50,682 nucleotides of DNA from Acidimicrobiia bacterium (GCA_029881355.1 JAOUMT010000002.1:1-50682), one strand, 5' to 3'; counted from the stretch's first letter, positions 27 through 22,619 are shown. Numbers and translations are program-made. The notes: generated from the letters alone by a model not told the origin.

Positions 27-1394
27 TTAAGCCAACAGGTGTTTGGCCCATGAGGTGTGGCGGTTACGAAGCTCGTCGCCTTCGAGGCCGACGACGTTGC
101 CGCCTTCGACGACCACCCGACCGTGCACCACCGACCAATCAACGCAGGCACGGTTCGCGAACACCAGACCCGCAACCGGGTCGGCGAACCCCGAATCTCC
201 CACCCGGCTCGTGACGTCGATGGCGATGACGTCGCAGGCCTTGCCGACCTCAAGGGATCCGAGGTCGCTCCTGCCGAGGACTTCTGCACTCCCCCGCGTC
301 GCCATCCGCAACGCATCCCTGGCTGACATGAGTGCGCCGCCCTCTCCTACGCCAGGTGCCACAGCGAGGCGGGCAACCAGCATCGCTTGACGCACCTCGG
401 CCAGCAGATTCGAGCTGTCGTTCGAGGCGCTGCCGTCGACTCCCAGACCCACCGGTACGCCTTGCTTGCGGTACCTGGCAATCGGGGCGATCCCAGACGC
501 GAGTCGCATGTTGGACGTCGGGCAATGGGCGACTCCGGTTTTGGTGCGGGCCATTTGTTCCGACTCTTCGGCCGAGATGTGCACGCCGTGGGCGAACCAC
601 ACATCGTCGCCGAGCCAATCGAGTTGTTCGGCATACTCAACCGGACGAGCGCCAAACCGTTCGAGACAGAACGCTTCCTCGTCGATGGTCTCGGCGATAT
701 GGGTGTGGAGTCGCACGCCTAGTTCTCTGGCGAGAGCCGCCGACTCTTTCATCAGTTCGCCGGTCACCGAGAACGGCGAGGCAGGAGCCAGAACCACCTG
801 TCGCATCGAGCCAGGATCGGGATCGTGCCAGCGGGCCACCGCCTCCTGGCTCGCCTCGAGAATGGATTCGTGGCCTTCGACGATCGCGTCTGGGGGAAGC
901 CCGCCCGAGGATTCACCCAGGCTCATCGAGCCGCGCGAGGCAATGAACCGGATCGGCACCTTCTCGGCACCCTCGAACTGGTCGTCGATCGTTGACCCGT
1001 TCGGCCAGAGATACTGGTGATCAAACGCGGTAGTACAACCAGACATCGCTAGTTCAGCTAGTCCCAGGGTGGTTGCATCCCGGATACTCTCGGAGGTCAG
1101 CCGGGCCCAGAGCGGATAAAGCGCAACCAGCCAGGTGAAGAGATCGGCATCTTGGGCCCGCGGAATCGCTCTCGTGAGGGTTTGATAGAGGTGATGATGG
1201 GTGTTGATCAGTCCGGGCACAACCACCATGCCATCGGCATCAATGACTGTGTCTGCGGTACCCGGCAGGTCGGACGACGCGCCAACCTGGGTGATCCAGC
1301 CATCTTCAGCCATCAAGCCGCCCCCGGCGATCTCGGTGCCGCCATCATCCATCGTCACCAGAACGAGGGCATTACGAATGAGCAGGCTGCTCAC
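27..1394 (-). CDS. Amidohydrolase-superfamily purine deaminase, 8-oxoguanine deaminase / guanine deaminase-like
   Basis: 455-aa ORF with metal motif PGLINTHHHLYQTLTR after an N-terminal beta-sandwich segment. GTG start overlaps the upstream stop (GTGA at 1391-1394). Confidence 0.8.
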   Translation of the reverse strand: MSSLLIRNALVLVTMDDGGTEIAGGGLMAEDGWITQVGASSDLPGTADTVIDADGMVVVPGLINTHHHLYQTLTRAIPRAQDADLFTWLVALYPLWARLTSESIRDATTLGLAELAMSGCTTAFDHQYLWPNGSTIDDQFEGAEKVPIRFIASRGSMSLGESSGGLPPDAIVEGHESILEASQEAVARWHDPDPGSMRQVVLAPASPFSVTGELMKESAALARELGVRLHTHIAETIDEEAFCLERFGARPVEYAEQLDWLGDDVWFAHGVHISAEESEQMARTKTGVAHCPTSNMRLASGIAPIARYRKQGVPVGLGVDGSASNDSSNLLAEVRQAMLVARLAVAPGVGEGGALMSARDALRMATRGSAEVLGRSDLGSLEVGKACDVIAIDVTSRVGDSGFADPVAGLVFANRACVDWSVVHGRVVVEGGNVVGLEGDELRNRHTSWAKHLLA

Positions 1395-3619
1395 TGCGAA
1401 AGGCCCGCCAGGACTCGCGATGGCGTCAGAGGGAAGCTGTCAAACCAGACGCCCGTGGCGTCATGTAGGGCGGCAATCACCGCGGCCGCATATGGGAGGT
1501 ACGGCATCTCAGCCATACCTCGGGCGGCGAACGGGCCGAGCGGATCGCCGTACTCACCGATCACCGTATCAACCTGGCGGGGAATATCGCCGATGCCCGG
1601 GATCAGGTACTGCGAGAGGCGGGGATTGGTAATCCTCCCGTCAGTACTTACCAGCAGTTCGGACAGCGCATACCCGTGCGCCTGCACGATGGCACCCTCG
1701 GATTGGGTAGTCACGAGCATCGGGTTGATCGCCTTGCCAACGTCTACCGCACTCACCACCCGATCGATGCGGATGTGCCCGGTTTCAACGTCGACGGACA
1801 GATCGACCGCCTGCGCCACGTACCCGTACGAGAAGTTCGGTACGGCCGGACCGCCCTCGGGATCCAGCATCTCCGTGGGTGGGGGCACATAACGAAAATC
1901 ACCAACCGCAGGTCTGTCTCCATTGAGCCACGACTTCTCCGCTTCCTCGGCGGCACCGAGAATCGAATTGCCTGCCATGAAGGTCATTCGTGACGCCGAC
2001 ACCGAACCCGAATCGCCGGTTCTGGCAGTATCAGAAAACACTGCGTCGACTGAGGCAACGTCCAAACCCAGAGCTTCGGCTGTCATCTGGATAAGCGCGG
2101 CATGAGTTCCCTGACCCACTTCCGCAGCAGAGTGAAACAAGGTGGCAGAAGTCGGGGATTCGCCATCTCCGTGCAGTTCGATGCGTGCCTCACATCGCTC
2201 CGGGAATCCAAAACTGAAGCCGACGTTTTTGAAAGCGCACGCGAACCCTCGACCGTGTTTCGTCGCCTGGTCCGACCCTGGCAGTGACCGAAATGCCTTC
2301 ACGGGTTGGTAGCTGACCGGCGGGTCACCCCAACCAGCCGATTCGGCGCAATCGTCGACGACTTCTTTGATCGATACCCCCTGGGGAAGTGGCGTATGGG
2401 TGGCTCCGAGGTCCCCGTCTCCAATGAGGTTGCGTCGCCGTACCTCGACCGGGTCCATGCCAAGGGCTTCGGCGAGTTTGTTGATCTGCGATTCGGAAAC
2501 AAACGTTCCCTGAGGCCCTCCAAAGCCGCGGAAGGCTCCGCCGGGTATCGAGGTCGTGTATACGGCGTGGCTGTCGACTCGGATGTTCGGCAGTAGATAC
2601 GGTCCGGCCAAAGTCATATGGAGGTTGCCAAGTACTTTGTTCGACGTGTAGTTGTACGAGCCGGCGTCAAGATAGGCATCGGCCTCGACGGCGACGATCT
2701 TGCCGTCGGCGGTCGCCCCCCAGCGGGTCGTCACCTGGGCCCGATGTCGCTTGTGGTGACCAACGATCGATTCCTCTCGGGACCATTGTGTGCGAATTGG
2801 GCGCCGCTCGCCGAGAGCCGCGCATTTCTGGGCCGCCAGCGCCAGCACGATCTGCAGGCTCATATCCTCGCGACCACCGAACGCCCCTCCGATCGCCGGA
2901 TAGATGATCCGGATCTGATCAGCCGGTACATCGAGGGCGTGAGCAATCTGCTCTTGATCCTCGTGGGTCCACTGGCCCCCAATCTCGACCGTCAAACGAC
3001 CTTCTTCGTCCACATAGGCAACCGCCGCTTCTGGCTGTAAGTAGGCGTGTTCTTGATGGGGCAGTTGGTAGGTGCCTTCGACAACCACCTCCGCTTGGGC
3101 CCAACCTTGCTCCATATCGCCTTTGCGAAACACGTACTGGTAATACGCGTTGGTGGGCTTTCCATTCTCGGGATGTATCAACGGGGCATCCGGCGCCAGA
3201 GCAGTATCGACGTCGGCAGCGAGAGGCAGCTCCTGCCATTGCACGTCGATGAGATCTGCCGCCTGGCGAGCGATGGCATCGGTTTCGGCAACGACGACGG
3301 CAATGTGATCCGCCTCCCACCTACTGATGTCCGAAGGGACGTTACTGCGGCCGGTTCCGTCAACACCGACCAGGACTGGTTGATCGAACATCGTCAAGCC
3401 GTACTCATTGAGCGGCACATCGGCCGCCGTAACAATGGTGACGACCCCGTCGAGTTCGGCCGCTCTCGACGTATCCATAGAGGTCATCCGGGCGTGGGGC
3501 TGATCTGAAAAGACGACAACCGCAGTGAGCATCTCCGACTCGCGTATGTCGCCGGGGTAGATGGCCGCTCCGGTGACCTTGGCTTCGGCATCGGGACGTT
3601 TGATCGACTCGCCAATCAT
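1391..3619 (-). CDS. Xanthine dehydrogenase family molybdopterin-binding large subunit
   Basis: Long ORF with aldehyde oxidase/xanthine dehydrogenase a/b-hammerhead and Moco-binding domains (GGAFGGRED, GFRGFGGPQG). I chose the ATG at 3619 (MIGESIKRPDAEAKVTG) because it forms an ATGA overlap with the upstream stop; the 16 codons further upstream look non-coding. Confidence 0.9.
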   Translation of the reverse strand: MIGESIKRPDAEAKVTGAAIYPGDIRESEMLTAVVVFSDQPHARMTSMDTSRAAELDGVVTIVTAADVPLNEYGLTMFDQPVLVGVDGTGRSNVPSDISRWEADHIAVVVAETDAIARQAADLIDVQWQELPLAADVDTALAPDAPLIHPENGKPTNAYYQYVFRKGDMEQGWAQAEVVVEGTYQLPHQEHAYLQPEAAVAYVDEEGRLTVEIGGQWTHEDQEQIAHALDVPADQIRIIYPAIGGAFGGREDMSLQIVLALAAQKCAALGERRPIRTQWSREESIVGHHKRHRAQVTTRWGATADGKIVAVEADAYLDAGSYNYTSNKVLGNLHMTLAGPYLLPNIRVDSHAVYTTSIPGGAFRGFGGPQGTFVSESQINKLAEALGMDPVEVRRRNLIGDGDLGATHTPLPQGVSIKEVVDDCAESAGWGDPPVSYQPVKAFRSLPGSDQATKHGRGFACAFKNVGFSFGFPERCEARIELHGDGESPTSATLFHSAAEVGQGTHAALIQMTAEALGLDVASVDAVFSDTARTGDSGSVSASRMTFMAGNSILGAAEEAEKSWLNGDRPAVGDFRYVPPPTEMLDPEGGPAVPNFSYGYVAQAVDLSVDVETGHIRIDRVVSAVDVGKAINPMLVTTQSEGAIVQAHGYALSELLVSTDGRITNPRLSQYLIPGIGDIPRQVDTVIGEYGDPLGPFAARGMAEMPYLPYAAAVIAALHDATGVWFDSFPLTPSRVLAGLSQ

Positions 3620-5016
3620 TGGCCGGCCGCCACAACCGCGTCGATGATCTTGTAATAGCCGGTACACCGGCAGAGATTGCCGGCCAGGCCTTCGATGACT
3701 GCGTCGGCGTCAGGGGTGGTCACCTCGTCGAGTAGTGAGGCACCGGCCACGATGAAGCCGGGGATGCAATATCCACATTGCACGGCGAACTTGTCGATGA
3801 ACGCTTGTTGGACGGGGTGGAGATCACCATTGGCGATACCCTCGACCGTCACTACCGACGCGCCTCCCACAGATAGGGCGGGTACCAGGCACGACATGAC
3901 GGCACTGCCGTTGAATTGCACGGTGCAGGCTCCGCACTCGCCCTCGGCGCATCCTTCCTTCGTTCCGGTTAGCGAGGCTCCGATGAGCGGACCTGCGACA
4001 TCGCGCAGCCAGTCAAGCAACGTCAATCCGGCGCCTCCGGCCACCTCGACTTCGTGCCCGTTGACGGTGGCCCAGTCGCCGCTCGAACCATGGGTCGACC
4101 CGCTCGCTCCAAGCAAGATCGGTGGTCGGTGGTCGGCCGGCGCCGACCGCAGTGACTGCAACCCTCGTTCGACGACTACCCGGACCGCCTCGGTACGGTA
4201 AGCCGCGGTGGCTCGGACATCGTCGATCGGGGTTACGGACGACATGGCTGCTAGCGCCGCGGCGCCAATCGCTTCGTCGTCAAGGGGTTTGCCGACCAAT
4301 GCCTCAACCGGGGCCTCGACGATGGTGGTAGCGACCGAACCCAAAGCGATTTTGGCGGACGACACGAGATCGCCGTCGGTCGCCACCACCATGGCCGCGT
4401 GAACAACCGAAATCGCTTGAGCAGCCCGCAGGCCGGCTTTGACGAACACTCCCCGTTCGTTGGCGGCAAGCTTGCGAAACGTTATGGAAGTGATGAGTTC
4501 GTCTGGCATCCGAAGGCTACGACGTACCCCCGTGTGGAACTCCTGGAGGGTTACCGTTCGCTCTCCCCGTACCGATCGCAAGGTCAACTCTGCATCAAGC
4601 ACTCGCAGCGCAGAAATCGTGTCGTTGGCGGGACTGGCGGTCGCGATGTTGCCAACGACGGTTGCTCGATTCCTTAGCTGAGGCGAGCCAATCTCAAAGC
4701 AGGCTTCGGCGAGCGGACGGGCGAAATCCCACAGCTGGGCCGAGGCCACGATCTGATTATGGGTCACCAGCATCCCGATCGTGACTCGCTTCTCGTCGAT
4801 CTGGATTTGCCCGCAGCCGGTGACGGCCGATAGGTCAATGAGTACCTCGACGCCGCCATGTTGATGGTGGGCGAACTCAAGAATGAGGTCCGTTCCACCC
4901 GCGATGAGGCGAGCCTTTTCGCCGTATTCGCCGAGCAGCTTCACCGCTTCGTCGATCGTCTTGGGGCGTAACACCTGATTCGGAAGCGGTCCACGCCGCT
5001 GAACTTCATGCATCAT
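3616..5016 (-). CDS. Fused FAD-binding (CoxM/XdhB-like) plus [2Fe-2S] (CoxS-like) subunit of xanthine dehydrogenase
   Basis: The N-terminal about 290 aa resemble the molybdopterin-dehydrogenase FAD-binding domain (LIAGGTDL). The C-terminal about 150 aa carry GCAEGECGACTV, QCGYCIPG and LCRCTGY cluster motifs. Confidence 0.9.
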   Translation of the reverse strand: MMHEVQRRGPLPNQVLRPKTIDEAVKLLGEYGEKARLIAGGTDLILEFAHHQHGGVEVLIDLSAVTGCGQIQIDEKRVTIGMLVTHNQIVASAQLWDFARPLAEACFEIGSPQLRNRATVVGNIATASPANDTISALRVLDAELTLRSVRGERTVTLQEFHTGVRRSLRMPDELITSITFRKLAANERGVFVKAGLRAAQAISVVHAAMVVATDGDLVSSAKIALGSVATTIVEAPVEALVGKPLDDEAIGAAALAAMSSVTPIDDVRATAAYRTEAVRVVVERGLQSLRSAPADHRPPILLGASGSTHGSSGDWATVNGHEVEVAGGAGLTLLDWLRDVAGPLIGASLTGTKEGCAEGECGACTVQFNGSAVMSCLVPALSVGGASVVTVEGIANGDLHPVQQAFIDKFAVQCGYCIPGFIVAGASLLDEVTTPDADAVIEGLAGNLCRCTGYYKIIDAVVAAGQ

Positions 5017-5587
5017 TGCGACCGTTATAGATGAGCGCTCCGGAGGCTGCGTACATGTCCAGTATTGCGGCGGCTTCCTCTCGCATGACGTCCACTTCGA
5101 CTTCGATGCCGCGGGACCTCAGGGCGTCCTGCCAGTCGGCGACCTTGGGGCCTTCGTCAAAACCGATAGAACGAGCGTCCTGGTCCCGGGCACCCGTGAC
5201 CAGCTTTCTCACCCCTGACCACACCGTGGCACCCATACAGAGCGCGCACGGTTCAGTCGACGCAACGAGTTCCATGGCCGGTAACCCTTCACCGCCGAGA
5301 TCGAAGACTCCGAGTCGCTGGTTGGCCAGGCCGATGGCGGTCGTTTCGGCATGGGCAAACGAAATGGCGGTCGGCACGACCCGGTTCACTCCCGGAGCCA
5401 CCAGGATGCCGCTGGCTGATTCGAATATGGCCGCCCCAAACGGGCCGCCGGTTTGCTCGACGACGTTGCGACGGGCCAGTTCGATGACGAACGGCATCCG
5501 ATCGGTCGGCTCGAATGAGACGCCCGGCGAGGCCATATCGTCGATCCAGTCGGGCGGATCGATCACGACTCTTCCCCACGAGCTCAC
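5006..5587 (-). CDS. CDA-fold (cytidine/deoxycytidylate deaminase family) guanine/nucleobase deaminase
   Basis: 193 aa with zinc motifs HAETTAI and PCALCMGA. GTGA overlap with the permease stop at 5584-5587. Confidence 0.85.
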   Translation of the reverse strand: MSSWGRVVIDPPDWIDDMASPGVSFEPTDRMPFVIELARRNVVEQTGGPFGAAIFESASGILVAPGVNRVVPTAISFAHAETTAIGLANQRLGVFDLGGEGLPAMELVASTEPCALCMGATVWSGVRKLVTGARDQDARSIGFDEGPKVADWQDALRSRGIEVEVDVMREEAAAILDMYAASGALIYNGRNDA

Positions 5588-6540
5588 GTTCGTTCCTCCC
5601 TGGCATACGGAATACCGAGGGCGGCTGGGGCACCAAGACGGCTACGCAACGATGATGCAGATGACACCAGCACGAGCACAACGATGGTCATGATGTAGGG
5701 AGCCATGTTCAGTAGGTTCGCCGAAATGGTCGTACCCGAGGCCTGTAATCGGAATTGAATTGCATTCACTCCCCCAAATAGGAGCGCACCGAAGAGAGCT
5801 CTCGTCGGACGCCAACTCGCAAAGATTACAAGGGCAACCGCGATCCAACCACGACCTCCGGTGAGGTTCTCTGACCAACCAGGTGTATAGGCCAGCGACA
5901 GGTGTGCGCCTCCGAGTCCCGCCAGAGCCCCTCCGACCATGGTGTAGATGTACCGGTACCGCAACACGGGGATCCCCATCGCCTCAACCGTGGCAGGGCT
6001 TTCTCCCATGGCTCTAAGTTGTTGGCCGAGCGTGGTGCGGTAGATGTAAAACGACACGAGCGGAATGAACAAGTACATGGAATACACGACGAGATCCTGA
6101 TTGAAGAGCGCTTCCCCAACGACGGGAATCGAGCTGAGTCCGGGTATCGCAACATCGCGAAAACGCGGCCCCTGTAAACCAACCAGCGGGCCGTTGTTCG
6201 GGCCCAAGCGCTCGCCGATGAAGCTGGCCAGGCCGGTCCCGGCCAGCGTCAACGCCAAACCGGAGACGATCTGATCAGCGCGCAGCGTGATCGTGACGAA
6301 GGCGTGCAGAAGCGCCATGAGCGACCCAATGGCCATCGCTACCAGGATGCCAATCGTCAGCGATCCCGAGTGGAATGCCGCTGCAAATCCGGTGACCGCC
6401 CCCATGATCATCATTCCCTCAACGCCCAGATTGAGGATTCCGGAGCGTTCGGTGATCGCTTCGCCGATGGTCGCATACGTCAGCGACGTACCGGCAAAGA
6501 CCGCAATTCCCAAGATGGAGGCAATCAGGTCCGCATTCAT
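5584..6540 (-). CDS. ABC transporter permease (BMP-family nucleoside/purine importer, second permease)
   Basis: Polytopic hydrophobic protein. Start set at the ATG at 6540 (MNADLIASILG), which forms an ATGA overlap with the upstream stop. The 64-codon extension of the tracked ORF is Arg/Pro-rich and overlaps the upstream gene. Confidence 0.85.
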   Translation of the reverse strand: MNADLIASILGIAVFAGTSLTYATIGEAITERSGILNLGVEGMMIMGAVTGFAAAFHSGSLTIGILVAMAIGSLMALLHAFVTITLRADQIVSGLALTLAGTGLASFIGERLGPNNGPLVGLQGPRFRDVAIPGLSSIPVVGEALFNQDLVVYSMYLFIPLVSFYIYRTTLGQQLRAMGESPATVEAMGIPVLRYRYIYTMVGGALAGLGGAHLSLAYTPGWSENLTGGRGWIAVALVIFASWRPTRALFGALLFGGVNAIQFRLQASGTTISANLLNMAPYIMTIVVLVLVSSASSLRSRLGAPAALGIPYAREERT

Positions 6541-7649
6541 GCCGGGGCCTCGACGTGCTGGCGGACCACCCGGATCCGATAGCGACTGAAGATGTCTCCG
6601 CCAAGCACAAAGAACAGCATGATGCCTTGCACGACCTGGGCGACGGAAGCAGGCAGACCCATGGTCATCTGTATTTGGTCTCCCCCCACGAATACGGCGG
6701 CCAGCAGGATCGACACGAGAACGATTGCCCACGGTTGCAGCTTGGCGACCCAGGCGACGATGATCGCCGTGAAGCCATTGTTGGCGGAGAGCCCTTGCTG
6801 GAGTTTGTGCGAAATCCCGGCCACTTCTCCCATGCCAGCCAGCCCGGCGAGACCGCCAGAGACGAGCATGACAAGAATGATGTTTCGGAACATCGATACT
6901 CCGGCAAACCGGGCTGCTTCGGGGTTATCGCCAAGCAGGCGAATCTCGTAGCCGGCCCGGGTTTTGGAAAGCAGCACCCAAACAAAGACGGCCGCCAGAA
7001 GCCCGATGAAGATCGCCAGGTTCACTCTCGTATTGAAAAACCTTGGTAGCCAGGTGTATTCGGGGAACAGTGCCGAACCGGGGAAACCGAAACCTGCGGG
7101 ATCTTTCCAAGAGGTCGTAAACAGCTGCGAGTACCACAAGATGGCGATGTAGTTCAGCATGAGCGTCACGATGATCTCGCTGACATTGAGGTAGGCCTTC
7201 AGAAGCGCAGGGATCAATGCCCACAACGCCCCGGCGAGAATGGCTGCACCTCCCATGAGCAGGCCATAAACCACCAGGTTCTGAGGTATACCGGGAGCGG
7301 CCTCGGGGAGAAAAAGCGCCACTCCCGACGCAGCAATCCCCCCCATGACCAGCTGACCCTCAGCGCCGATGTTCCAGAACTTCATCTTGAACGCCACCGC
7401 GACTGCCAAACCGGTCAATATGAGTGGAGTGGCCCGCACCAATGTTTCAGAAACGCTGTAAAACTCGCCCCCGAAGATATCCCCGAACGCCCCGTCCCAC
7501 ATCGCCGCGTAGGTCTCGATCGGATTGGCCCCGAATGCAAGAAGCAACAGCCCGCTTGCTACCAGTGCCAGCACCACCGAGACGACCGGTACTACCCAGC
7601 TGAGGTAGCCGGGCGGATCGAGGCGGCGCTCGAGACGCAGCCGGATCAT
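6537..7649 (-). CDS. ABC transporter permease (BMP-family nucleoside/purine importer, first permease)
   Basis: 370-aa polytopic membrane protein. ATGA overlap with the ATPase stop at 7646-7649. Confidence 0.9.
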   Translation of the reverse strand: MIRLRLERRLDPPGYLSWVVPVVSVVLALVASGLLLLAFGANPIETYAAMWDGAFGDIFGGEFYSVSETLVRATPLILTGLAVAVAFKMKFWNIGAEGQLVMGGIAASGVALFLPEAAPGIPQNLVVYGLLMGGAAILAGALWALIPALLKAYLNVSEIIVTLMLNYIAILWYSQLFTTSWKDPAGFGFPGSALFPEYTWLPRFFNTRVNLAIFIGLLAAVFVWVLLSKTRAGYEIRLLGDNPEAARFAGVSMFRNIILVMLVSGGLAGLAGMGEVAGISHKLQQGLSANNGFTAIIVAWVAKLQPWAIVLVSILLAAVFVGGDQIQMTMGLPASVAQVVQGIMLFFVLGGDIFSRYRIRVVRQHVEAPA

Positions 7650-9208: not shown

Positions 9209-9217
9209 GGCTGGTTC

Positions 9218-10354: not shown

Positions 10355-10377
10355 GATATGTCCTCCAGTAATGAATA

Positions 10378-10434: not shown

Positions 10435-10463
10435 ACGGGCCACGTAACGAGTCAGGGGCGGAT

Positions 10464-12236: not shown

Positions 12237-12247
12237 GGGTTCCTCTC

Positions 12248-13267: not shown

Positions 13268-13290
13268 TTATCGGCCCTCTGCCCGGCGGA

Positions 13291-15888
13291 TCATCCGACG
13301 TCCACCGGCGAGTACGTATTGAACGGCAACTGATTTCTCCGGGTCCCATCAACCTCAAACAACGCCTGGGCCACGGCACCGGCCGTGGGGACGAGACCGA
13401 TCTCGCCCACGCCCTTGATGCCATACGGCGCCCGTGGCTGGGGTGCCTCGACCAGGAGAACCTCGATTTCGGGAACATCCTTGGGACGCAAGATGCCGAG
13501 ACTCCTCAGCGTCATATTGGTGGGCCGGCCGTTTTCGTCGGTCGGGAAGTCCTCGGTGAGCGCATAGCCGAGGCCCATGTGAACCGATCCCTCGACTTGC
13601 CCCCTGCAGAGCAGCGGATTGACCGCCCGTCCGACGTCGTGGGCTGCTACGACCTTTTCGATCTTTCCCGTTTCCTTGTCGGCGATGACGACCTGAGCGG
13701 CGTATCCAAACGCCGAATGCAGAATCGGGTTCTCAAGGCCATCGGACAGTTTGTTCGTCCAGTCGACCCGATACTCACCCTCATAGTCCACTCCGACTCG
13801 GCAGCCGTCGGCGATCGCAGCCTGACAGGCCGCCTGCACCGACCCGGCTCCCATGAGTGTGCCACGCGACCCGGTGGTTTGACCGGCGCCGAGTTCCCGA
13901 GATGTGTCAACCACCACCCGGATCCGACCCGCATCGATGCCCAACTCTTCGGAAGCGACCTGGAGTGCGACCGTGTGAACCCCCTGACCCATCTCGGTCC
14001 AGCAATGGCGAACCTCAACGACGCCATCCTCCTCAAAGCGCACGACCGCCCTGGCGATTTCGAGGAACCCGTTGCCCAAACCCGAATTCTTGAGAGCCAG
14101 ACCGAGACCAACCGCCTTGCCCGCTTGGCGGGCGGCGTCATAGGGAGCCTTGATGGCGTCAAGGCACATCCGTACCCCGGCCGAACCGTCGTCCATGATC
14201 TGCCCGGGACCCCACACGACTCCTGGTTCTATGGCGTTGCGGCTGCGCATCTCCCAACCGGTGATCCCGACCTTTTCGGCAAGCCGATCCATGACACCTT
14301 CCATGGCGAACTGCGCCTGATTGGCACCAAACCCTCGAAATGCCCCACAGACGGAGTTGTTGGTCCGAACCGCCGTTGCCTTCACGTCGATGTTGGGAAC
14401 CACGTAAGGACCGCTCGCATGACCGGCGGCCCGCTCAAGCACCTTCATCCCGACAGACGCATACGGACCGGAATCCCCGATCATCCGGACCCTCAGCCCG
14501 ACCAGTCTGCCGTCGGCGTCGCACCCGGCCCTGGTTTCGATGCGGATCGGATGTCGTTTGGCGTGTATAAAAAAACTCTGTTCGCGCGTAATCGTGCACT
14601 TCACCGGGCGACCCGACAGATGAGCAGCCAGGGCGGTCTGCGCCTGATTGGACATGTCCTCTTTGCCGCCGAAGGCTCCTCCATTCGAAACGAGCTGCAC
14701 GGTGATCGCGGCCTGCTCGACGCCCAACACCGCGGCGATCTGATCACGGTCATCCCACACGCCCTGCCCTCCCGAGTAAACGTGCAGTCCGGCATCGGTC
14801 GGCACGGCCAGGGTCGACTCCGGCTCAAGAAACGCGTGCTCGATCCGTTGGGTCACAAAGACTTCATCGACCGTATGGGTCGCACCGGCCAGCGCTTGTT
14901 CAACGTCACCGCGTGCATATTCCGAGATTGACAGCTGATTGCCATCCAACTCCCACACGGCATCTTCAGACTCAAGCGCAGTCAACGGATCGGTGATCGG
15001 CGTCAGAACGTTGTAGGTGACCTCAACGAGTTCGGCAGCTTCCCGAGCGGTCTGCTGGTCTTCGGCCACCACGATCGCCAGGACATCACCGAGATAGGAA
15101 GTACGACCGCCCACCGGTATGAACACCGGCCAGTCTTTGTAGATGATCCCTACCCGCAGATCACCCGGCACATCGGCAGCGGTATACACAGCAATGACGC
15201 CGGGCACCGCTAAAGCGGGAGCGGTATCGATCCCCAGAATGTCAGCCCGTGCGTGGTCGGATAGCCGTAACGCGCCGTGGACCATTCCGGGCACCCGCAA
15301 ATCGTCTACGTAGCCGCGATCTCCCAGGGCCAAGGCTTCGGCTTCGTACTTGACGCTCGAAGTCCCGATACCACCCTCGACATGGACCTCGGGAATCTCT
15401 TCACCGGAGGCGAGCAACTCGATGGCGTCGACGATGCCGACATACCCAGTGCACCGGCACAAATGAGCACCGAGCCGACCTTCGATGGTGGTTCGGTCGA
15501 GGTCCTTGCCCTTTTGGTCAATGAGCGCCTTGGCACGAACCAGGATCCCGGGCGTGCAAAAGCCACATTGAAGCGCACCCTTGGCGGCGAACCCGCGAGC
15601 CAGTCGATCGCGTTCGGCCTCGTCGAACCCCTCGAGGGTGACAACCTCTTTGCCTGCCGCCTTCTCCATCGATACCAGACACGCCTGAATGGCCTTACCA
15701 TCGAGCAGAACCGTGCAGCACCCACACTGACCTTGCGGCGCACAGCCGTCTTTGGCAGATGTCACGCCCACTTCTTCGCGTAGTGCCGCCAACAAATGCG
15801 GGTGGTGCATCCCGACCTCGATCGCCTGACCGTTGACCACAAGGTTGGTCTTCTCGGTGGTTCGAACGTACACCGGGGTTGCCGTCAT
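13291..15888 (-). CDS. XdhD-like fused [2Fe-2S] plus molybdopterin-binding hydroxylase
   Basis: 865 aa. The N-terminus has GCAPQGQCGCCTV, CGFCTPG and CRCTGY Fe-S motifs. The rest is a Moco-binding aldehyde oxidase/xanthine dehydrogenase domain (GGAFGGKED, GAFRGFGANQ). ATGA overlap at 15885-15888. Confidence 0.9.
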   Translation of the reverse strand: MTATPVYVRTTEKTNLVVNGQAIEVGMHHPHLLAALREEVGVTSAKDGCAPQGQCGCCTVLLDGKAIQACLVSMEKAAGKEVVTLEGFDEAERDRLARGFAAKGALQCGFCTPGILVRAKALIDQKGKDLDRTTIEGRLGAHLCRCTGYVGIVDAIELLASGEEIPEVHVEGGIGTSSVKYEAEALALGDRGYVDDLRVPGMVHGALRLSDHARADILGIDTAPALAVPGVIAVYTAADVPGDLRVGIIYKDWPVFIPVGGRTSYLGDVLAIVVAEDQQTAREAAELVEVTYNVLTPITDPLTALESEDAVWELDGNQLSISEYARGDVEQALAGATHTVDEVFVTQRIEHAFLEPESTLAVPTDAGLHVYSGGQGVWDDRDQIAAVLGVEQAAITVQLVSNGGAFGGKEDMSNQAQTALAAHLSGRPVKCTITREQSFFIHAKRHPIRIETRAGCDADGRLVGLRVRMIGDSGPYASVGMKVLERAAGHASGPYVVPNIDVKATAVRTNNSVCGAFRGFGANQAQFAMEGVMDRLAEKVGITGWEMRSRNAIEPGVVWGPGQIMDDGSAGVRMCLDAIKAPYDAARQAGKAVGLGLALKNSGLGNGFLEIARAVVRFEEDGVVEVRHCWTEMGQGVHTVALQVASEELGIDAGRIRVVVDTSRELGAGQTTGSRGTLMGAGSVQAACQAAIADGCRVGVDYEGEYRVDWTNKLSDGLENPILHSAFGYAAQVVIADKETGKIEKVVAAHDVGRAVNPLLCRGQVEGSVHMGLGYALTEDFPTDENGRPTNMTLRSLGILRPKDVPEIEVLLVEAPQPRAPYGIKGVGEIGLVPTAGAVAQALFEVDGTRRNQLPFNTYSPVDVG

Positions 15889-16814
15889 GAATTCTCTCCT
15901 GGGCGAGACACTCCGCGCTGTTCGGTGATCCGTCGATAGGCGGCGGGAACCCGATATCGCTCAAAATCGAACAGTGTGGTCTTGTAAAACCGGGTGTAGT
16001 CGAGATCGATTCTGGCCACGATGACCTCATCTCCGGTGGTAATCGCCTGGGCAATTATTTGGCCCGACGGAGCAATGATCACCGATTGGGCCAGGGATTC
16101 GACTCCCTCTTCGAACCCGCCTTTGGCGACCCCAACCACGTAGGTGCCGTTCTGATAGGCACCGGCCTGCATCACCAGATGATTATGAAAGGCCTGCAAA
16201 GGATTCTGAGTCGGATCGGGCGCATACGCCAACGGCGTGTTGTAGCCGATGAGGATCAGTTCAACACCTTGCAGGCCCATGACCCGATACGTCTCTGACC
16301 ACCGGCGGTCATTGCAAAGGGCCATACCGACGACCCCCCCAAAAGCATCCGCCACCGGAAAATCCTCTCCTGGCTCGAAATAGTGCCGCTCCGCATGCTG
16401 AAACTGTCGCCAGGGTTCATGGGCTGCATGGCCGGGGATATGGACCTTCTCGAACACGTTCACCGTCTCGCCTTCTCGGTCGACCAGGTGATACACGTTG
16501 TGGCGTCGGCCGTCGGCGCCGAGTCGGGCATAACCCAACGCGAAACCGATACCGAGCCGACGCGCCTCATCCCACAGCGGCTTGGTATGCCGGTTCGGCA
16601 TCTCGTGCTCATAGAAATGGTCCGCTTCCTCGAACGGCATATGCCATCTCGGGAAAAAAGTGGTGAGGGCAAGCTCGGGAAAGGCGACGAGTTCGCCTCC
16701 CAGCTCTGAAGCTTCCTGAAGCATGACGATGAGGCGTTCCACGACTTCATCACGTGGAGTATCTCGCTGAACGGGGCCCATCTGGGCTGCGGCAAGGGTC
16801 AGTAGACGAGGCAT
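15885..16814 (-). CDS. Nitrilase-superfamily N-carbamoyl-amino-acid amidohydrolase (D-carbamoylase-like)
   Basis: Glu-Lys-Cys triad context: AFPELALT, KVHIPG, GMALCNDRRW. Start set at the ATG at 16814 (MPRLLTLAAAQMGP). The 26 upstream codons of the tracked ORF lie in an AT-rich promoter-like region. Confidence 0.85.
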   Translation of the reverse strand: MPRLLTLAAAQMGPVQRDTPRDEVVERLIVMLQEASELGGELVAFPELALTTFFPRWHMPFEEADHFYEHEMPNRHTKPLWDEARRLGIGFALGYARLGADGRRHNVYHLVDREGETVNVFEKVHIPGHAAHEPWRQFQHAERHYFEPGEDFPVADAFGGVVGMALCNDRRWSETYRVMGLQGVELILIGYNTPLAYAPDPTQNPLQAFHNHLVMQAGAYQNGTYVVGVAKGGFEEGVESLAQSVIIAPSGQIIAQAITTGDEVIVARIDLDYTRFYKTTLFDFERYRVPAAYRRITEQRGVSRPGENS

Positions 16815-16892
16815 GCCGGGATTATACCCAACTCGGGCGGACGAACTTATACAAAACGTAAAGTTTGATCGGTAGTCTCGTGCTGCGATCAA
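16815..16892 (-). promoter_or_regulatory. AT-rich intergenic region with TATAAT -10 box placed for a leaderless transcript
   Basis: The minus strand reads ...TTTACGTTTTGTATAAGTTCGTCCGCCCGAGTTGGGTATAATCCCGGCATG. The TATAAT (plus-strand 16821-16826) ends 6 nt before the ATG. Confidence 0.35.
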
Positions 16893-17834
16893 TCAACGAG
16901 TAAACCGAGTGCCCGCCCGACCGGCAATGGCATCTTCGATGGCCTTCGGAGACGTCACAATGGCCTCGCCCCCACCCGCCTCGAGAAAAGCCAGGATCGC
17001 CCGAATCTTTGGTTCCATGCTGCCCGGCCGAAAGTGGGTGCCTTCCTCCAGATACCGGCGGGCATCGTCGCTCGATAGGTGATCAACCCAACGCTGATCA
17101 GGTTGCCCGAAGTTCAAAGCCACCTGGTCGACCGAGGTTGAAATCAGCAGAAGGTCGGCGCGGAGTTCGGCGGCCAGCAACGCCGACGCATGATCCTTGT
17201 CGATCACTGCCGGGACGCCGACCAAACATCCCTGATCATCCGCCACGACCGGAATGCCGCCACCACCGGCCGCTATCACCACGTATCCGGCTTTAAGCAG
17301 TCGATCGACGGCATCGAGTTCCACAATCCGGAGTGGATACGGCGAGGCGACGACTCGCCGCCACCCTCGACCGGAATCTTCCATCACGTCCCAACCGTCA
17401 ACCGTCCGTCGCTCGGACGCCTCAGCTTCCGTCATGAACCCGCCGATGGGTTTGGTCGGATGCTGAAACGCCGGATCATCAGAACCGACCTCCACCTGGG
17501 TCACGAGAGTCACGACTCGCTCGGGAAGCCCCATCCGTTTGAAGTCGTTGAGGAGGTTTTGCTGAAGGAGATACCCGATCGCCCCTTGCGTATCTGCACC
17601 GCACACTTCCAGCGGCACCTCGTGCAGTTCGTTACGGGCTAATTCGGAACGCCTCAGGATGAATCCAATCTGGGGACCGTTGCCATGGGTGACCACTACG
17701 CTCCAACCAGAAGCCACCATGTTGGCGATGTGATGGTCGGTCTCTGCGGCTGCGAGATATTGATCTTGCACCGACTGGTGCTCGGGATCGGTGATGAGAC
17801 TGTTCCCACCAATGGCTACGACGGCAACTGGCAT
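16893..17834 (-). CDS. arcC: Carbamate kinase
   Basis: 313 aa with VVAIGGNSL and THGNGPQIG signatures and typical length. Confidence 0.9.
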   Translation of the reverse strand: MPVAVVAIGGNSLITDPEHQSVQDQYLAAAETDHHIANMVASGWSVVVTHGNGPQIGFILRRSELARNELHEVPLEVCGADTQGAIGYLLQQNLLNDFKRMGLPERVVTLVTQVEVGSDDPAFQHPTKPIGGFMTEAEASERRTVDGWDVMEDSGRGWRRVVASPYPLRIVELDAVDRLLKAGYVVIAAGGGGIPVVADDQGCLVGVPAVIDKDHASALLAAELRADLLLISTSVDQVALNFGQPDQRWVDHLSSDDARRYLEEGTHFRPGSMEPKIRAILAFLEAGGGEAIVTSPKAIEDAIAGRAGTRFTR

Positions 17835-17841
17835 TGGTCCC

Positions 17842-18813
17842 TCACATCGTCAAGGCCATAGCGGCCTTCTGGACGTGAAGGCGGTTCTCGGCCTGGTCGT
17901 ATACGACGCTTTGAGGTCCGTCGATGACCTCGTCGCTCACTTCGAGGTTCCGGTCGGCCGGAAGTGGGTGCATGTAGATGGCGCCACGACCCGCTTTTTC
18001 CATCTGCCCGATATCGACCATCCAATGCGTGTAGCGACGGCCGATGTCGGCCGATTCCTCCTCGGTGGCGGTGGTGAGCGCTCCCCACGACTTGGCGTAC
18101 ACGACGTCGGCGCCTGCCAGCCCCTCCTCGAAGGACTCGACGACGTCCAACGTGCCCCCGCCGACTCGAGCGTTCTCGCCCGCCTGGCGCATGACTTCGT
18201 CCTCAAGCGCAAACTCGGGAGGCCGGGCCAAACGGACGTTCATCCCGAACCGGGTGGCAAGGAGCAGAAGGCTCTGGGCCACTGAGATCGGCTTCTGATA
18301 GCTCGACGCGTGGGCATAGCTGATGTTGAGCGTCAGCTGTCGGGGGTCTCCCTTCTTTTCCATGATTGTCAGCAAGTCGGCCAGGGCTTGGAATGGATGG
18401 TACCGATCACACTGCATATTCAGGACCGGCACCCTCGCAGCTTTGGCCACTTCGTTGATGTAGTGGTTTCCAACCCCCCAATCGACATTCCGGATCGCCA
18501 AGCCGGCGGTATACCGACCAAGGATGTCGCCGATTTCTTTGGCAGTGTCGCCATGTGCAATCTGCGTGGTCTGGGCCTCCATGAACATCGCATGGCCGCC
18601 CAGCTGCGCCATCCCGGCTTCAAAACTCGCCCGGGTCCTCGTCGATGAGAAAAAGAACAGCATGGCCAGGACTTTGTCACGAAGGAGGGGATGGGGTTCG
18701 CCCATCGCTTGCTGAAGTTTGAGGTGTTTGGCAACCGCCAACAAGGTCTCAAGCTCTTCGACCGACCAGTCCTGGGTGGTGATCAAATCGCGCCCACGAA
18801 GGTCGGTGATCAT
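17842..18813 (-). CDS. Ornithine-carbamoyltransferase-like transcarbamylase with non-canonical second-substrate motifs
   Basis: STRTR and HPFQ carbamoyl-phosphate motifs are present. KSWGAL replaces DxxxSMG and HPLP replaces HCLP. ATGA overlap with the upstream gene at 18810-18813. Confidence 0.85.
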   Translation of the reverse strand: MITDLRGRDLITTQDWSVEELETLLAVAKHLKLQQAMGEPHPLLRDKVLAMLFFFSSTRTRASFEAGMAQLGGHAMFMEAQTTQIAHGDTAKEIGDILGRYTAGLAIRNVDWGVGNHYINEVAKAARVPVLNMQCDRYHPFQALADLLTIMEKKGDPRQLTLNISYAHASSYQKPISVAQSLLLLATRFGMNVRLARPPEFALEDEVMRQAGENARVGGGTLDVVESFEEGLAGADVVYAKSWGALTTATEEESADIGRRYTHWMVDIGQMEKAGRGAIYMHPLPADRNLEVSDEVIDGPQSVVYDQAENRLHVQKAAMALTM

Positions 18814-19832
18814 GGCGTTGCGCCCAGGACGAGCGCCAACAGTGCCATTCGAATCACCAAACCGTTGTACGCCTCCTGCCAGTAGCGGGCATAGTGCGTG
18901 TCATCGACGTTCGTCGACAACTCGTCCATCCTCGGTAACGAGTGCAACACGATCGCTGATCGCTTCGCTTTTGTGGCGAGTAATTCGGCGGTGACCTGAT
19001 AACGAGAATCGGTCGTTGCGACAGAGTCACCACGCTCATCTCGCCCCTTGCCATAGTCGGCCTGGACGACCGGCTCAATGAAGATCACGTCGGCTTCGTT
19101 TACCACTTCGGCTACATGCTCGGCCCTTCGAATCTGAAGACCGCGACCACGAACCGACTTGATCAATCCTTCATCGGGCTCCTCGTCGGACGGGCAGACA
19201 TAAATGAGATCTGCGTCGAACTGGGTCAAGGCATACGCCAGCGAATGCATCGTGCGCATCCGCCAGTCACCAACAGCGACGAACGTCAACCCATCGACCT
19301 TCCCGAGTTCCTTGCGGACTGTGAACAGGTCTGTGAGTACTTGCGTCGGGTGTTCACCCCATCCATCACCACCGTTGATGACTGGAATCGACGCCCAGCG
19401 CGCCATCTCGTGGGGAGCGCCTATCTGGGGATGCCGCATCACGATGACGTCGCCGTAGTACTCCAACATGTGGGCCGTGTCCTTCAACGATTCCTGATAG
19501 AAGTCCCCGGCTCGAGTCATCTTCGCGTCGGCAAAGCCGGTGACTTGACCGCCGAGACGCAACATCGCCGACTCGTGAGCGAGCCGAGTTCGCGTCGATG
19601 CCTGAAAGAAAGCACTGACCAGGATCTGGCCTGCCAACAGATCGATGCTGCGCCGACTCTTGGCGACAGGATCGAACCGATCACCGGCTTCGAATACGGA
19701 CTCGAAGTCCGCCCGGCTGAAGTCCTCCAGAGACAGAATGTCTCGTCCTGCAAACTCTCGCATGACACGCTCCCGGTCGTAATCGTTCCACTGTGCAATC
19801 GGCTGCCCGCTGGCGCTAGTGGCGTTGGTCAT
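18810..19832 (-). CDS. Aspartate-carbamoyltransferase-like transcarbamylase, divergent
   Basis: STRTR, HPTQ and HSLPR motifs. The region equivalent to RxQxER is altered (PVVQADYGKGRDER). Start set at the ATG at 19832; the tracked ORF extends to a TTG at 19862, so the start is uncertain. Confidence 0.8.
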   Translation of the reverse strand: MTNATSASGQPIAQWNDYDRERVMREFAGRDILSLEDFSRADFESVFEAGDRFDPVAKSRRSIDLLAGQILVSAFFQASTRTRLAHESAMLRLGGQVTGFADAKMTRAGDFYQESLKDTAHMLEYYGDVIVMRHPQIGAPHEMARWASIPVINGGDGWGEHPTQVLTDLFTVRKELGKVDGLTFVAVGDWRMRTMHSLAYALTQFDADLIYVCPSDEEPDEGLIKSVRGRGLQIRRAEHVAEVVNEADVIFIEPVVQADYGKGRDERGDSVATTDSRYQVTAELLATKAKRSAIVLHSLPRMDELSTNVDDTHYARYWQEAYNGLVIRMALLALVLGATP

Positions 19833-19888
19833 ATTCCTGCGACGGCCGGCCAGGGAGTACAATGTTGTGGCCTAAGCGAGGAGCAACG

Positions 19889-20728
19889 ATGTCGATGAAT
19901 GTGCGAGCTGCCCTGGTCCAGTCCGAATGGACCGGCGACACCGAGTCGATGATCGAAAAGAACCTCGGATACGCCCGGGATGCCGCCGAACAAGGCGCTC
20001 AGGTGCTCAGCTTCCAGGAGATCTTCTCAGCTCCATATTTCTGCACCGTTCAGGACCGGAGCTACTTCAGCTACGCCGAAGAAATGCCGGGACCTACCAC
20101 GAACCGGATGGTCGCCCTCGCCAAGGAGACAGGCATGGTCTTGGTCGTCCCCATGTTCGAGAAGGTTGACGACGGGACCTACTACAACACGGCGGCGGTC
20201 ATCGATGCCGACGGAACCTTCCTCGGCAAGTACCGCAAAAACCACATTCCCCAGGTCCAGGGGTTCTGGGAGAAGTTCTACTTTCGCCCAGGGAACCTCG
20301 GGTATCCCGTCTTCGATACTGCTGTCGGGAAAGTCGGCGTCTACATATGTTACGACCGCCACTTTCCCGAGGGTTGGCGGGAACTCGGCCTCAACGGCGC
20401 CAAAATCGTATTCAATCCGTCAGCGACGACGCGTGGCCACTCCAAGTATCTCTGGCAACTCGAACAACCAGCCGCAGCGGTAGCGAACGAGTACTTTGTA
20501 GGAGCCATCAACCGGGTGGGGCCCGAACCCGCCGAAAACACCGACTACTACGGGTCCTCCTACTTCGTCGACCCCCGCGCCCGTATTGTTGGCGAGGCCG
20601 CCTCAGACGAAAAGGACGAGGTAGTCGTGCGCGACCTCGACATGGCGATGATCGAGGAAACCCGCAATTACTGGCAGTTCTTCCGGGACCGGCGCCCCGA
20701 CACGTACACCCAGACCGGGGCTATCTAG
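19889..20728 (+). CDS. Nitrilase-superfamily beta-ureidopropionase-like decarbamoylase
   Basis: SFQEIF (Glu), YRKNHIP (Lys), VYICYDRHFPE (Cys). Start set at the ATG at 19889, with GAGGAG 6 nt upstream. Confidence 0.85.
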   Translation: MSMNVRAALVQSEWTGDTESMIEKNLGYARDAAEQGAQVLSFQEIFSAPYFCTVQDRSYFSYAEEMPGPTTNRMVALAKETGMVLVVPMFEKVDDGTYYNTAAVIDADGTFLGKYRKNHIPQVQGFWEKFYFRPGNLGYPVFDTAVGKVGVYICYDRHFPEGWRELGLNGAKIVFNPSATTRGHSKYLWQLEQPAAAVANEYFVGAINRVGPEPAENTDYYGSSYFVDPRARIVGEAASDEKDEVVVRDLDMAMIEETRNYWQFFRDRRPDTYTQTGAI

Positions 20729-20743
20729 CCAACCCGATGGCGC

Positions 20744-22616: not shown

Positions 22617-22619
22617 TCG

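Follow-up and report, generated by a model that had tools for sequence, protein, structure and literature searches.

Gene content of the locus

We analyzed a 50,682-nucleotide stretch of DNA from an Acidimicrobiia bacterium (GCA_029881355.1 JAOUMT010000002.1:1-50682; hereafter the window, with positions counted from its first letter), which carries a 26-kb gene cluster (27-26283) related to the ygeW-ygfK-ssnA-xdhD urate cluster of Escherichia coli. The window proteins were scanned against Pfam and NCBIfam models, and the proteins of the E. coli MG1655 locus were used as tblastn queries against the whole 50.7-kb window (E <= 1e-3). A first-pass annotation had placed a nearly continuous minus-strand array of purine-degradation genes at 27-20728; the gene types that it listed were all found at their positions in the Pfam and NCBIfam scans, and its start and content stand. 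The array is indeed unbroken on the minus strand from 27 to 19862, where 15 tightly packed open reading frames (ORFs), many overlapping by 4-11 nt, are found, but the second CN-hydrolase gene lies divergently on the plus strand and the cluster runs on past 20728 to 26283. The only larger gap within the array (109 nt) precedes the importer genes, the called starts of several genes are shorter than the maximal ORFs, and the G+C content is uniform across the window at ~0.60.

In the order of transcription, the minus-strand array begins with ATCl, a transcarbamylase derived from aspartate transcarbamylase (ATCase; 18810-19763, maximal ORF to 19862), OTCl, a YgeW/AOTC-like transcarbamylase (17842-18813), a carbamate kinase equivalent to YqeA (16893-17834) and CNh1, a CN-hydrolase resembling N-carbamoyl-D-amino-acid hydrolases (15885-16814, maximal ORF to 16892). 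These are followed by an 865-aa fused 2Fe-2S/molybdenum cofactor (Moco) hydroxylase without FAD domain (13291-15888), a short SsnA of 339 aa (12248-13267) and a mini-YgfK of 590 aa (10464-12236). An importer comes next, comprising a BMP-family substrate-binding protein (Pfam Bmp; 9218-10354), an ABC ATPase in which two stretches match ABC_tran (7646-9208) and two BPD_transp_2 permeases (6537-7649 and 5584-6540, the latter 318 aa as called). The array ends with a CDA-fold guanine deaminase-like protein of 193 aa (5006-5587), a conventional xanthine dehydrogenase (XDH) made up of an FAD and 2x[2Fe-2S] subunit (3616-5016) and a molybdopterin subunit (Ald_Xan_dh_C with MoCoBD_1/2; 1391-3619, 742 aa as called, maximal ORF to 3667), and a 455-aa amidohydrolase of the 8-oxoguanine deaminase family (27-1394). 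On the plus strand lie CNh2, a CN-hydrolase resembling beta-ureidopropionase and N-carbamoylputrescine amidase (19889-20728, maximal ORF from 19862), an adenosine deaminase (21609-22616), a 62-aa ORF with no family matches (22725-22913), an 84-aa Thiamine_BP/MTH1187-like protein (ThiBP, PF01910; 23019-23273), a 120-aa HTH_22 DNA-binding protein (23270-23632) and two pyridoxal phosphate (PLP) enzymes of family PF00291, PALP1 (495 aa; 23685-25172) and PALP2 (372 aa; 25165-26283). A YwiC-like membrane protein is encoded on the minus strand at 20744-21553.

The remark in the first-pass annotation that the individual reactions of the E. coli locus are largely unassigned is out of date, as the pathway was reconstituted in 2025 (PMC12507026; bioRxiv 10.1101/2025.04.24.650524). 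Urate is converted into 2,8-dioxopurine by C6 dehydroxylation, carried out in E. coli by XdhD-YgfM with NADH (PMC12507026; bioRxiv 10.1101/2025.04.24.650524) and in Clostridium sporogenes by an FAD-less, selenium-dependent XdhAC, named DOPDH (bioRxiv 10.1101/2025.04.24.650524). The ring is reduced by YgfK (DOPOR) and opened by SsnA, giving ureidomethylhydantoin or 5-ureidodihydrouracil, and HyuA opens the second ring to 2,3-diureidopropionate. One ureido group is then phosphorolysed by YgeW, with YqeA making ATP from carbamoyl phosphate, or hydrolysed instead by UacY in Clostridioides difficile; YgeY removes the other ureido group and YgeX converts diaminopropionate into pyruvate (PMC12507026; bioRxiv 10.1101/2025.04.24.650524). 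In the 2025 descriptions, the pathway belongs to anaerobic Bacillota and Enterobacteria, most of them host-associated. Li et al. already noted SsnA homologues and cluster variants in Actinomycetota and Chloroflexota (PMC12507026); the variant presented here was not found described in the literature searched.

Enzymes encoded in the cluster

The short SsnA scored 254 bits on NF005540 (cutoff 444, model positions 58-341) and 240 bits on TIGR03314 (cutoff 455.5), compared with at most 85 bits for the next-best family, the chlorohydrolase/TRZ-ATZ models, and tblastn matched it to residues 46-438 of E. coli SsnA with 33% identity. It falls below the family cutoff because it is truncated, lacking ~70 N-terminal residues of the E. 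coli form; its HxH, DHHxSP, HIHxxE, SNxNN and LGTDGIG motifs align with those of E. coli SsnA. A scan of a one-genome-per-species collection retrieved at least 600 stretches, 595 of them confirmed. The best 120 homologues are 318-346 aa long and 76-100% identical, and the exact 339-aa protein is also present on a contig of the MAG GCA_029882115.1 and in several metagenome assemblies. Judged by these homologues, the short SsnA defines a conserved clade, for which we propose the role of hydrolytic opener of the reduced purine. The best 80 loci, all from metagenome-assembled genomes (MAGs), are labelled mostly Acidimicrobiia or Chloroflexota/Limnocylindria, and the homologues named from Acidimicrobiia MAGs bear out the description of the cluster as of actinobacterial type. 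Short SsnA is 75-80% identical between Acidimicrobiia-labelled and Chloroflexota-labelled MAGs, and the Moco enzymes that neighbour it form two groups, ~70-75% and ~49% identical, a pattern that suggests unusually strong constraint on SsnA or lateral transfer. The labels Gemmatimonadales, Kiloniellaceae and Boseongicola on some of the MAGs look like binning errors.

Mini-YgfK, whose gene starts 11 nt downstream of that of short SsnA, has YgfK as its sole NCBIfam family match (TIGR03315, 434 bits against a cutoff of 835, model positions 5-396), and neither PreA nor DHO_dh models matched it in the Pfam and NCBIfam scans. Residues 5-405 and 898-978 of E. coli YgfK match it by tblastn with 40% identity each, so that the central ~490 residues, the GltD-like FAD/NADPH part of YgfK, are missing. 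In the best 120 homologues, which are 576-638 aa long, both CxxCxxCxxxCP motifs are invariant, and a library-wide search of the YgfK family returned short (about 590-760 aa) and long (about 1000-1220 aa) forms. The AlphaFold (AF2) model of mini-YgfK (pLDDT 80, pTM 0.85) has pig dihydropyrimidine dehydrogenase (DPD) and dihydroorotate dehydrogenases as its top matches. Sequence and model both depict a DPD-like FMN TIM-barrel with two 4Fe-4S clusters and without the FAD/NADPH module. Based on the model matches, mini-YgfK would work like the FMN barrel and Fe-S domain of DPD, in a PreA-like manner, and yet is a YgfK by sequence; we propose that it is a 2,8-dioxopurine reductase. The names SsnA-like and YgfK-like given in the first-pass annotation are thus upheld by the family matches, although both proteins are strongly reduced forms.

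The 865-aa protein narrowly passes TIGR03311, the selenium-dependent XDH model (830.6 bits against a cutoff of 830.45, model positions 2-842 of 848), and fails the E. coli XdhD family model TIGR03313 (195.8 bits against 1101.9), in keeping with 23% tblastn identity to E. coli XdhD. On the aldehyde oxidoreductase model it reaches 416 of the required 1100 bits. By these scores it belongs to the selenium-dependent XDH family and not to that of E. coli XdhD; the earlier label XdhD-like holds for its fused FeS-Moco architecture and not for its family. The family models thus place none of the 865-aa, 339-aa and 590-aa proteins in unrelated subfamilies. The Mo domain of the 865-aa protein spans ~307-839. 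Both this protein and the conventional XDH keep a Glu/Arg/Glu active-site set, at positions that we take to be equivalent to Glu802, Arg880 and Glu1261 of bovine xanthine oxidoreductase, where E. coli XdhD has Gln/Gln/Glu. We propose the 865-aa protein as the enzyme interconverting urate and 2,8-dioxopurine, of the DOPDH type.

The upstream part of the array encodes enzymes suited to the removal of ureido groups. The carbamate kinase passes NF009007 (385.3 bits, cutoff 266), lies just under the cutoff of TIGR00746 (349.2 against 358.25) and is 51% identical to E. coli YqeA. OTCl is 30% identical to E. coli YgeW (E 1e-41) and shares YgeW-type motifs, with the ornithine transcarbamylase DxxxSMG and HCLP motifs absent; it scored below both YgeW cutoffs (141 of 500 bits on TIGR03316 and 149.5 of 453 on NF005538). 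ATCl, whose nearest PDB entry is 1ml4 (E 3e-70), passes the aspartate carbamoyltransferase model TIGR00670 (244.3 bits, cutoff 236.95) and keeps all carbamoyl-phosphate ligands and Arg167. However, K84 is replaced by Y, R229 by P, Q231 by R and HPLP by HSLP in 13 of 14 aligned family members (the Q231 position holds H in locus L044), and these altered aspartate-site residues indicate that ATCl is not a normal aspartate transcarbamylase despite its narrow pass. We propose phosphorolysis of a ureido group on a primary carbon (3-ureido) for OTCl, and of the 2-ureido group for ATCl.

The best PDB match of CNh1 is the N-carbamoyl-D-amino-acid hydrolase 6lei (E 3e-110), a group of enzymes that act on alpha-ureido groups, and those of CNh2 are 2vhh (E 6e-54) and 5h8i (E 2e-52), a beta-ureidopropionase and N-carbamoylputrescine amidase kinship whose members act on ureido groups on a primary carbon. 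CNh1 and CNh2 are accordingly candidates for the hydrolysis of the 2-ureido and the 3-ureido group, respectively. Two ureido-cleaving enzymes are expected for the pathway, and the cluster offers four candidates of the right chemistry, all from non-orthologous families except the YgeW-like OTCl. From these likenesses we infer two parallel decarbamoylation routes, one phosphorolytic and ATP-yielding and the other hydrolytic, each with an alpha- and a beta-specific enzyme, an arrangement that would mirror the alternatives represented by YgeW in E. coli and UacY in C. difficile.

The downstream part of the array supplies putative feeder enzymes. The amidohydrolase at 27-1394 passes the 8-oxoguanine deaminase model NF006055 (625.2 bits, cutoff 532) and is proposed to convert 8-oxoguanine into urate. 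The CDA-fold deaminase matches PDB 2g84 (NE0047, E 4e-51) and, more distantly, the guanine deaminase of Bacillus subtilis (1wkq, E 9e-13). For the molybdopterin subunit of the conventional XDH the best NCBIfam model was pucD (501 bits, below the cutoff of 784). The small subunit contains FAD_binding_5 at 14-179, CO_deh_flav_C at 193-288 and Fer2 plus Fer2_2 at 317-461, thus placing the FAD domains at the N terminus and the two 2Fe-2S domains at the C terminus, whereas FeS followed by FAD is the usual order. Domain, family and PDB matches thus confirmed the two transcarbamylases, the carbamate kinase, the guanine and 8-oxoguanine deaminase-like enzymes and the conventional XDH. The adenosine deaminase (NF006850, 520 bits against 419) is loosely associated with the cluster and represents a possible feeder step. 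The BMP substrate-binding protein is nearest to PDB 3s99 (E 3e-95), followed by AtzT (6pi5, E 4e-90). AtzT retained guanine in its binding site (PMC6834077), which indicates uptake of bases rather than nucleosides, and the ligands of the importer are probably purine bases.

Conservation of the cluster in related loci

We analyzed the neighbourhood of short SsnA in its best 80 loci (labelled individually, for example L006), with counts based on the 41 that extend a full ±10 kb (21 kb) around the gene. A YgfK-type gene accompanies short SsnA in 38 of these 41 full loci (9 of 392-692 aa, about 27 long), and a Moco enzyme of the 865-aa or XdhD type lies within 10 kb in 33, being of the 865-aa type in 30. 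Transcarbamylases were found in 18 (ATCl in 17, OTCl in 15), carbamate kinase in 14, CN-hydrolases in 5 (CNh1 in 5, CNh2 in 4) and a homologue of the 8-oxoguanine deaminase, with ~59% identity, in 5. Sister loci carry the phosphorolytic set, the hydrolytic set or both. The gene arrangement is not due to chance, and the classification of the cluster as a variant of the ygeW-ygfK-ssnA-xdhD urate cluster is supported by this synteny as well as by the family models and tblastn.

Parts of the canonical pathway in single sister loci tie the clade to that pathway. XdhD and YgfM occur with an XdhC-like gene, YqeB and YqeC in three of them (L054, L063 and L070), in L054 and L063 in place of the 865-aa type; YgeW and YgeY are found in L077, YgeX in L019, L021, L044 and L046, and HyuA in L039, which shows that some members of the clade do use HyuA. 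L039 is the only one of the 80 related loci with HyuA, and none of the 41 full loci has it. YqeC (TIGR03172) and YqeB (TIGR03309), markers of the selenium cofactor, occur in 8 and 7 related loci, respectively. In five loci (L010, L016, L033, L038 and L056, at about 7.2-10.0 kb), four of them labelled Chloroflexia, a TIGR03842-type F420-dependent luciferase-like monooxygenase (LLM) lies directly upstream of short SsnA, and in all five a YgfK-like ORF (3 full length, 2 split) lies directly downstream. Li et al. reported that an F420-type LLM replaces YgfK in Chloroflexota (PMC12507026). The LLM of the five loci has no match in the window, and the luciferase-like gene at 38328-39353 was ruled out as such a reductase, having no homologue near short SsnA in the 41 full loci.

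Beyond position 20728, the two PLP enzymes and the ThiBP/HTH_22 pair are conserved members of the cluster. PALP1 homologues occur in 17 of the 41 full loci and 21 of all 80, never together with YgeX, and one or the other is present in 21 of the 41. In 20 of the 21 loci, PALP1 stands beside PALP2 or a ThrC-like paralogue. In the window PALP2 overlaps PALP1 by 8 nt; the two genes are translationally coupled and have no close characterised relative. The AF2 model of PALP1 (pLDDT 84.5) has cysteine synthases and CBS as its best Foldseek matches, with TM about 0.75 normalised to the target. An AHK lysine, an STGN loop and a GSGGT loop are conserved, which we take to be the Schiff-base lysine context, the substrate-carboxylate Asn-loop of cysteine synthases and the phosphate loop, respectively. 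This fold and these motifs fit a beta-elimination on a beta-substituted alanine, and we propose that PALP1 acts in this way on diaminopropionate or ureidoalanine, yielding pyruvate. PALP1 also has extensions of about 110 aa at its N terminus and 100 aa at its C terminus, and its homologues are often annotated as cysteine synthase in the source records. PALP2 is remotely like threonine synthase/dehydratase, with a best PDB match of E 6e-6, and is nearly an orphan. The statement in the first-pass annotation that YgeX is lacking agrees with the tblastn search, but it overlooks these enzymes at 23685-26283, a pair that probably replaces YgeX.

The ThiBP and HTH_22 (PF13309, E 1e-18) genes form a pair in about 22-25 of the 80 related loci, usually divergent from the Moco gene. 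The pair is also present in two compact clusters on Mb-scale contigs (9394-9983 in L091 and 5137-5735 in L092), where the core genes for mini-YgfK, short SsnA and the Moco enzyme face those for CNh2, ThiBP and HTH_22. In L091 the core side also holds CNh1 and a BMP gene, and PALP1-PALP2 follow directly after HTH_22; in L092, CNh1 and the transcarbamylase and kinase genes lie between HTH_22 and the PLP pair. The YwiC, adenosine deaminase and 62-aa ORF genes that are interposed in the window are all absent from these compact clusters and therefore look like insertions. ThiBP is a candidate ligand-sensing partner of the HTH_22 protein, and the two may form a split sensor/regulator specific to the pathway.

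To the right of PALP2, a nitroreductase (26213-26896) and an enolase-superfamily enzyme (26907-27980) were ruled out as cluster members, with homologues in 0 of the 41 full loci. The region 26213-50682 is housekeeping DNA unrelated to the cluster. Besides the genes already mentioned, it includes a DnaQ-GIY-YIG fusion (30144-31811), a histidine biosynthesis operon (33839-38331), a diiron acyl-ACP-type desaturase (46496-47488), whose presence suggests exposure to O2, an ECF sigma factor with a DUF5667 protein, a SpoU methylase, a double-AAA ATPase, a P-type ATPase, a nucleotidyltransferase with a GlmU-like C-terminal domain and a two-component system. To the left of position 1 (L088, 13655-16798) lie a 120-aa ORF without Pfam match and then, on the opposite strand, the pntAB NAD(P) transhydrogenase operon; the 10-kb left flank further holds a CBS protein, a HAD hydrolase, a tricorn protease and thyA. 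A riboswitch search returned no Rfam match at the gathering threshold in the window, nothing convincing was found among operator-like inverted repeats in the five intergenic regions searched, and the promoter/terminator scan was at background level.

Proposed pathway and alternative readings

Based on these analyses, we consider it probable that the cluster is a catabolic island leading from purines to pyruvate, with the reductive uric-acid (2,8-dioxopurine) pathway at its core and with functions predicted from homology to E. coli, C. sporogenes and C. difficile enzymes and from synteny. The BMP-type ABC importer would take up purine bases, and the guanine, 8-oxoguanine and adenosine deaminases together with the conventional XDH would funnel purines to urate. 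The 865-aa enzyme would strip the 6-oxo group of urate to give 2,8-dioxopurine, mini-YgfK would reduce the pyrimidine ring with electrons arriving via its two 4Fe-4S clusters and not directly from NADPH, and short SsnA would hydrolyse the amidine carbon, opening one ring. Opening of the second ring, the HyuA step, is chemically needed, and no enzyme in the cluster is assigned to it. 2,3-Diureidopropionate would then be attacked either phosphorolytically, by ATCl at the 2-ureido and OTCl at the 3-ureido group with carbamate kinase turning the carbamoyl phosphate into ATP, or hydrolytically, by CNh1 and CNh2 at the same two positions. PALP1/PALP2 would convert diaminopropionate into pyruvate and ammonia in place of YgeX, and the ThiBP/HTH_22 pair probably regulates the genes.

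The E. coli K-12 cluster (xdhD-ygfM, ygfK, ssnA, hyuA, ygeW, yqeA, ygeY, ygeX; Li et al., 2025, PMC12507026) follows the same core logic, with homologous SsnA, YgfK ends, YqeA and YgeW, and likewise has neighbouring XDH, guanine deaminase and purine uptake genes. In the Acidimicrobiia cluster, however, the Moco enzyme is of another family and comes without YgfM, YgfK and SsnA are reduced, and none of HyuA, YgeX, YgeY, YgfM, YqeB, YqeC and MocA has a tblastn match in the window, in agreement with the first-pass annotation for all those that it had listed as lacking (on YgeX, see also above). Two CN-hydrolases, the ATCase-derived transcarbamylase and two novel PLP enzymes are added, an ABC importer is found instead of permeases, the ThiBP/HTH_22 pair instead of YgeV, and a CDA-fold guanine deaminase instead of one with the amidohydrolase fold. 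The idea that an embedded BMP importer and CN-hydrolases take the place of missing enzymes is thus supported by the Pfam Bmp and ABC genes and by the PDB matches.

In C. sporogenes (Liu et al., 2025, bioRxiv 10.1101/2025.04.24.650524), the fused FeS-Moco enzyme likewise lacks FAD and is about 850 aa long, urate is supplied by a separate XDH, and ATP is formed via transcarbamylase and carbamate kinase. The DOPDH of C. sporogenes does not use NAD(P)H, a trait that the 865-aa enzyme would share. Unlike mini-YgfK, the DOPOR of C. sporogenes is NADPH-dependent and full length, and HyuA, YgeY and YgeX are used; selenium dependence has been shown there, whereas in the present clade the one hint of it is the presence of YqeB/YqeC in sister loci. 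The C. difficile variant, with UacX instead of YgfK and UacY instead of YgeW/YqeA (PMC12507026), likewise has a reductase without FAD/NADPH domain, for which a ferredoxin-type donor is presumed, and in place of phosphorolysis uses a hydrolytic decarbamoylation that acts on a D-configured N-acyl amino acid. However, UacX is of the PydA/DHO_dh type and not a trimmed YgfK, UacY is a D-aminoacylase-type amidohydrolase and not a CN-hydrolase, and HyuA, YgeY and YgeX are kept.

Similarities extend to other ring-cleaving systems. In the reductive pyrimidine pathway (PreT/PreA or DPD, dihydropyrimidinase, beta-ureidopropionase), a uracil-like ring is also reduced by a flavin/Fe-S enzyme, hydrolysed and decarbamoylated; mini-YgfK would relate to YgfK as PreA does to mammalian DPD, and CNh2 is beta-ureidopropionase-like. 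However, none of the proteins is an orthologue of PreA or dihydropyrimidinase, and the context here is purine-specific. CNh1 is a close homologue of the crystallised N-carbamoyl-D-amino-acid hydrolases of D-hydantoinase/D-carbamoylase systems, but it has no hydantoinase partner here and sits in a purine cluster, which suggests 2-ureido-3-amino- or 2,3-diureidopropionate as its natural substrate. Compared with the known systems, the new elements would be the minimal SsnA and YgfK, a TIGR03311-type Moco enzyme, CN-hydrolases for YgeY/UacY, an extra ATCase-derived transcarbamylase, a PLP pair for YgeX, the BMP importer, the ThiBP/HTH_22 pair and the lack of a detected hydantoinase.

Several observations weigh against assigning the cluster to the reductive urate pathway. 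Searches of the window, its 10-kb left flank, the 80 related loci and the compact L091 and L092 clusters gave no HyuA-type hydantoinase other than that of a single related locus (79 of the 80 lack it), which leaves one chemically required step unaccounted for; a copy farther away in the genome may exist. SsnA (254/444 bits), YgfK (434/835) and YgeW (about 145/453-500) all fall below curated cutoffs, YqeB, YqeC and SelD are absent from the window, and mini-YgfK has no visible electron donor. In two sister loci (L019, 3848-14838, and L021), mini-YgfK occurs together with a full-length YgfK; the long form lies beside short SsnA and the mini form beside the Moco gene and YgeX. The mini form may therefore differ in role from the long one and not simply replace it. 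In addition, the name of TIGR03311 is that of a xanthine dehydrogenase, and sequence alone cannot separate a C6-dehydroxylating from a xanthine- or purine-oxidising enzyme. The window also encodes an O2-dependent-type diiron desaturase, from which the host organism may be aerobic, and the pathway has been described only from anaerobes. Finally, all roles in this clade are predicted ones.

Three other explanations were weighed. The 865-aa protein could work in the oxidative direction, as a second xanthine or purine hydroxylase that depends on selenium, with SsnA and mini-YgfK acting on another purine-derived intermediate, so that the route would be related to the urate pathway and not the same. 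The annotation of TIGR03311 and the Glu/Arg/Glu set, as in classical XDH and unlike the XdhD set, would fit such an enzyme, and a lower pathway of different chemistry is hinted at by the lack of HyuA and the additional PLP enzyme. We regard this as unlikely: the operon already has a conventional XDH, the preprint describes for C. sporogenes DOPDH an FAD-less FeS-Moco architecture and a Mo-domain position that agree with those of the 865-aa protein, and some sister loci have E. coli-type XdhD-YgfM instead of it.

The right half of the array could instead be a reductive pyrimidine (uracil/thymine) or hydantoin module beside purine-oxidising genes, in which mini-YgfK would be a PreA analogue, short SsnA would hydrolyse the ring as an amidohydrolase and CNh2 would be a beta-ureidopropionase. 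Such a module is consistent with the best model match of mini-YgfK to DPD, with the nearest relatives of CNh2 and the place of CNh1 among the D-carbamoylases of the hydantoinase process, and with the fact that BMP importers often carry nucleosides. It is very unlikely, however, as the 590-aa protein is a YgfK at both ends, with no PreA or DHO_dh model matching, the amidohydrolase is SsnA-like and of the deaminase type rather than dihydropyrimidinase-like, most full loci (33/41) have a purine-type Moco enzyme no more than 10 kb from short SsnA, and real YgeW, YgeY, YgeX and XdhD-YgfM are found in sister loci. That the cluster is decaying, with the truncated SsnA and YgfK as pseudogene remnants and their co-location historical, is scarcely credible: the two proteins do fall far short of E. 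coli SsnA and YgfK in length and do not reach the family cutoffs, but the short forms are conserved in length, their motifs and Fe-S cysteines are invariant, at least 600 matches to short SsnA exist and the gene junctions are tight or overlapping. We rejected the pseudogene reading on account of the length and motif conservation across hundreds of homologues.

Within the reductive urate pathway, which we continue to favour, a more specific version appears doubtful but deserves mention. The clade may run a hydantoinase-independent 2,8-dioxopurine pathway in oxygen-exposed bacteria, in which the PLP pair would cover part of the lower pathway beyond YgeX, ATCl would let both ureido groups be phosphorolysed, giving two ATP per urate, and XDH would feed electrons to the Moco enzyme and mini-YgfK. 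If so, hypoxanthine would be dismutated with no net redox input.

The cluster represents a compact, strongly conserved derivative of the pathway in uncultured Acidimicrobiia and Chloroflexota-labelled MAGs, with isolate labels among the matches to short SsnA pointing to varied non-gut sources. If it is functional, the minimal SsnA and YgfK could help to define the catalytic cores of these enzymes and may serve in the engineering of uricolytic strains, and the second ring opening and the electron donor would become directly testable questions. ATCl, PALP1, PALP2 and the ThiBP/HTH_22 pair, four so far uncharacterised protein families, would be concrete candidates, and the cluster would provide a plausible natural role for D-carbamoylases. 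Oxygen-independent mineralisation of purines would then be a common environmental trait.

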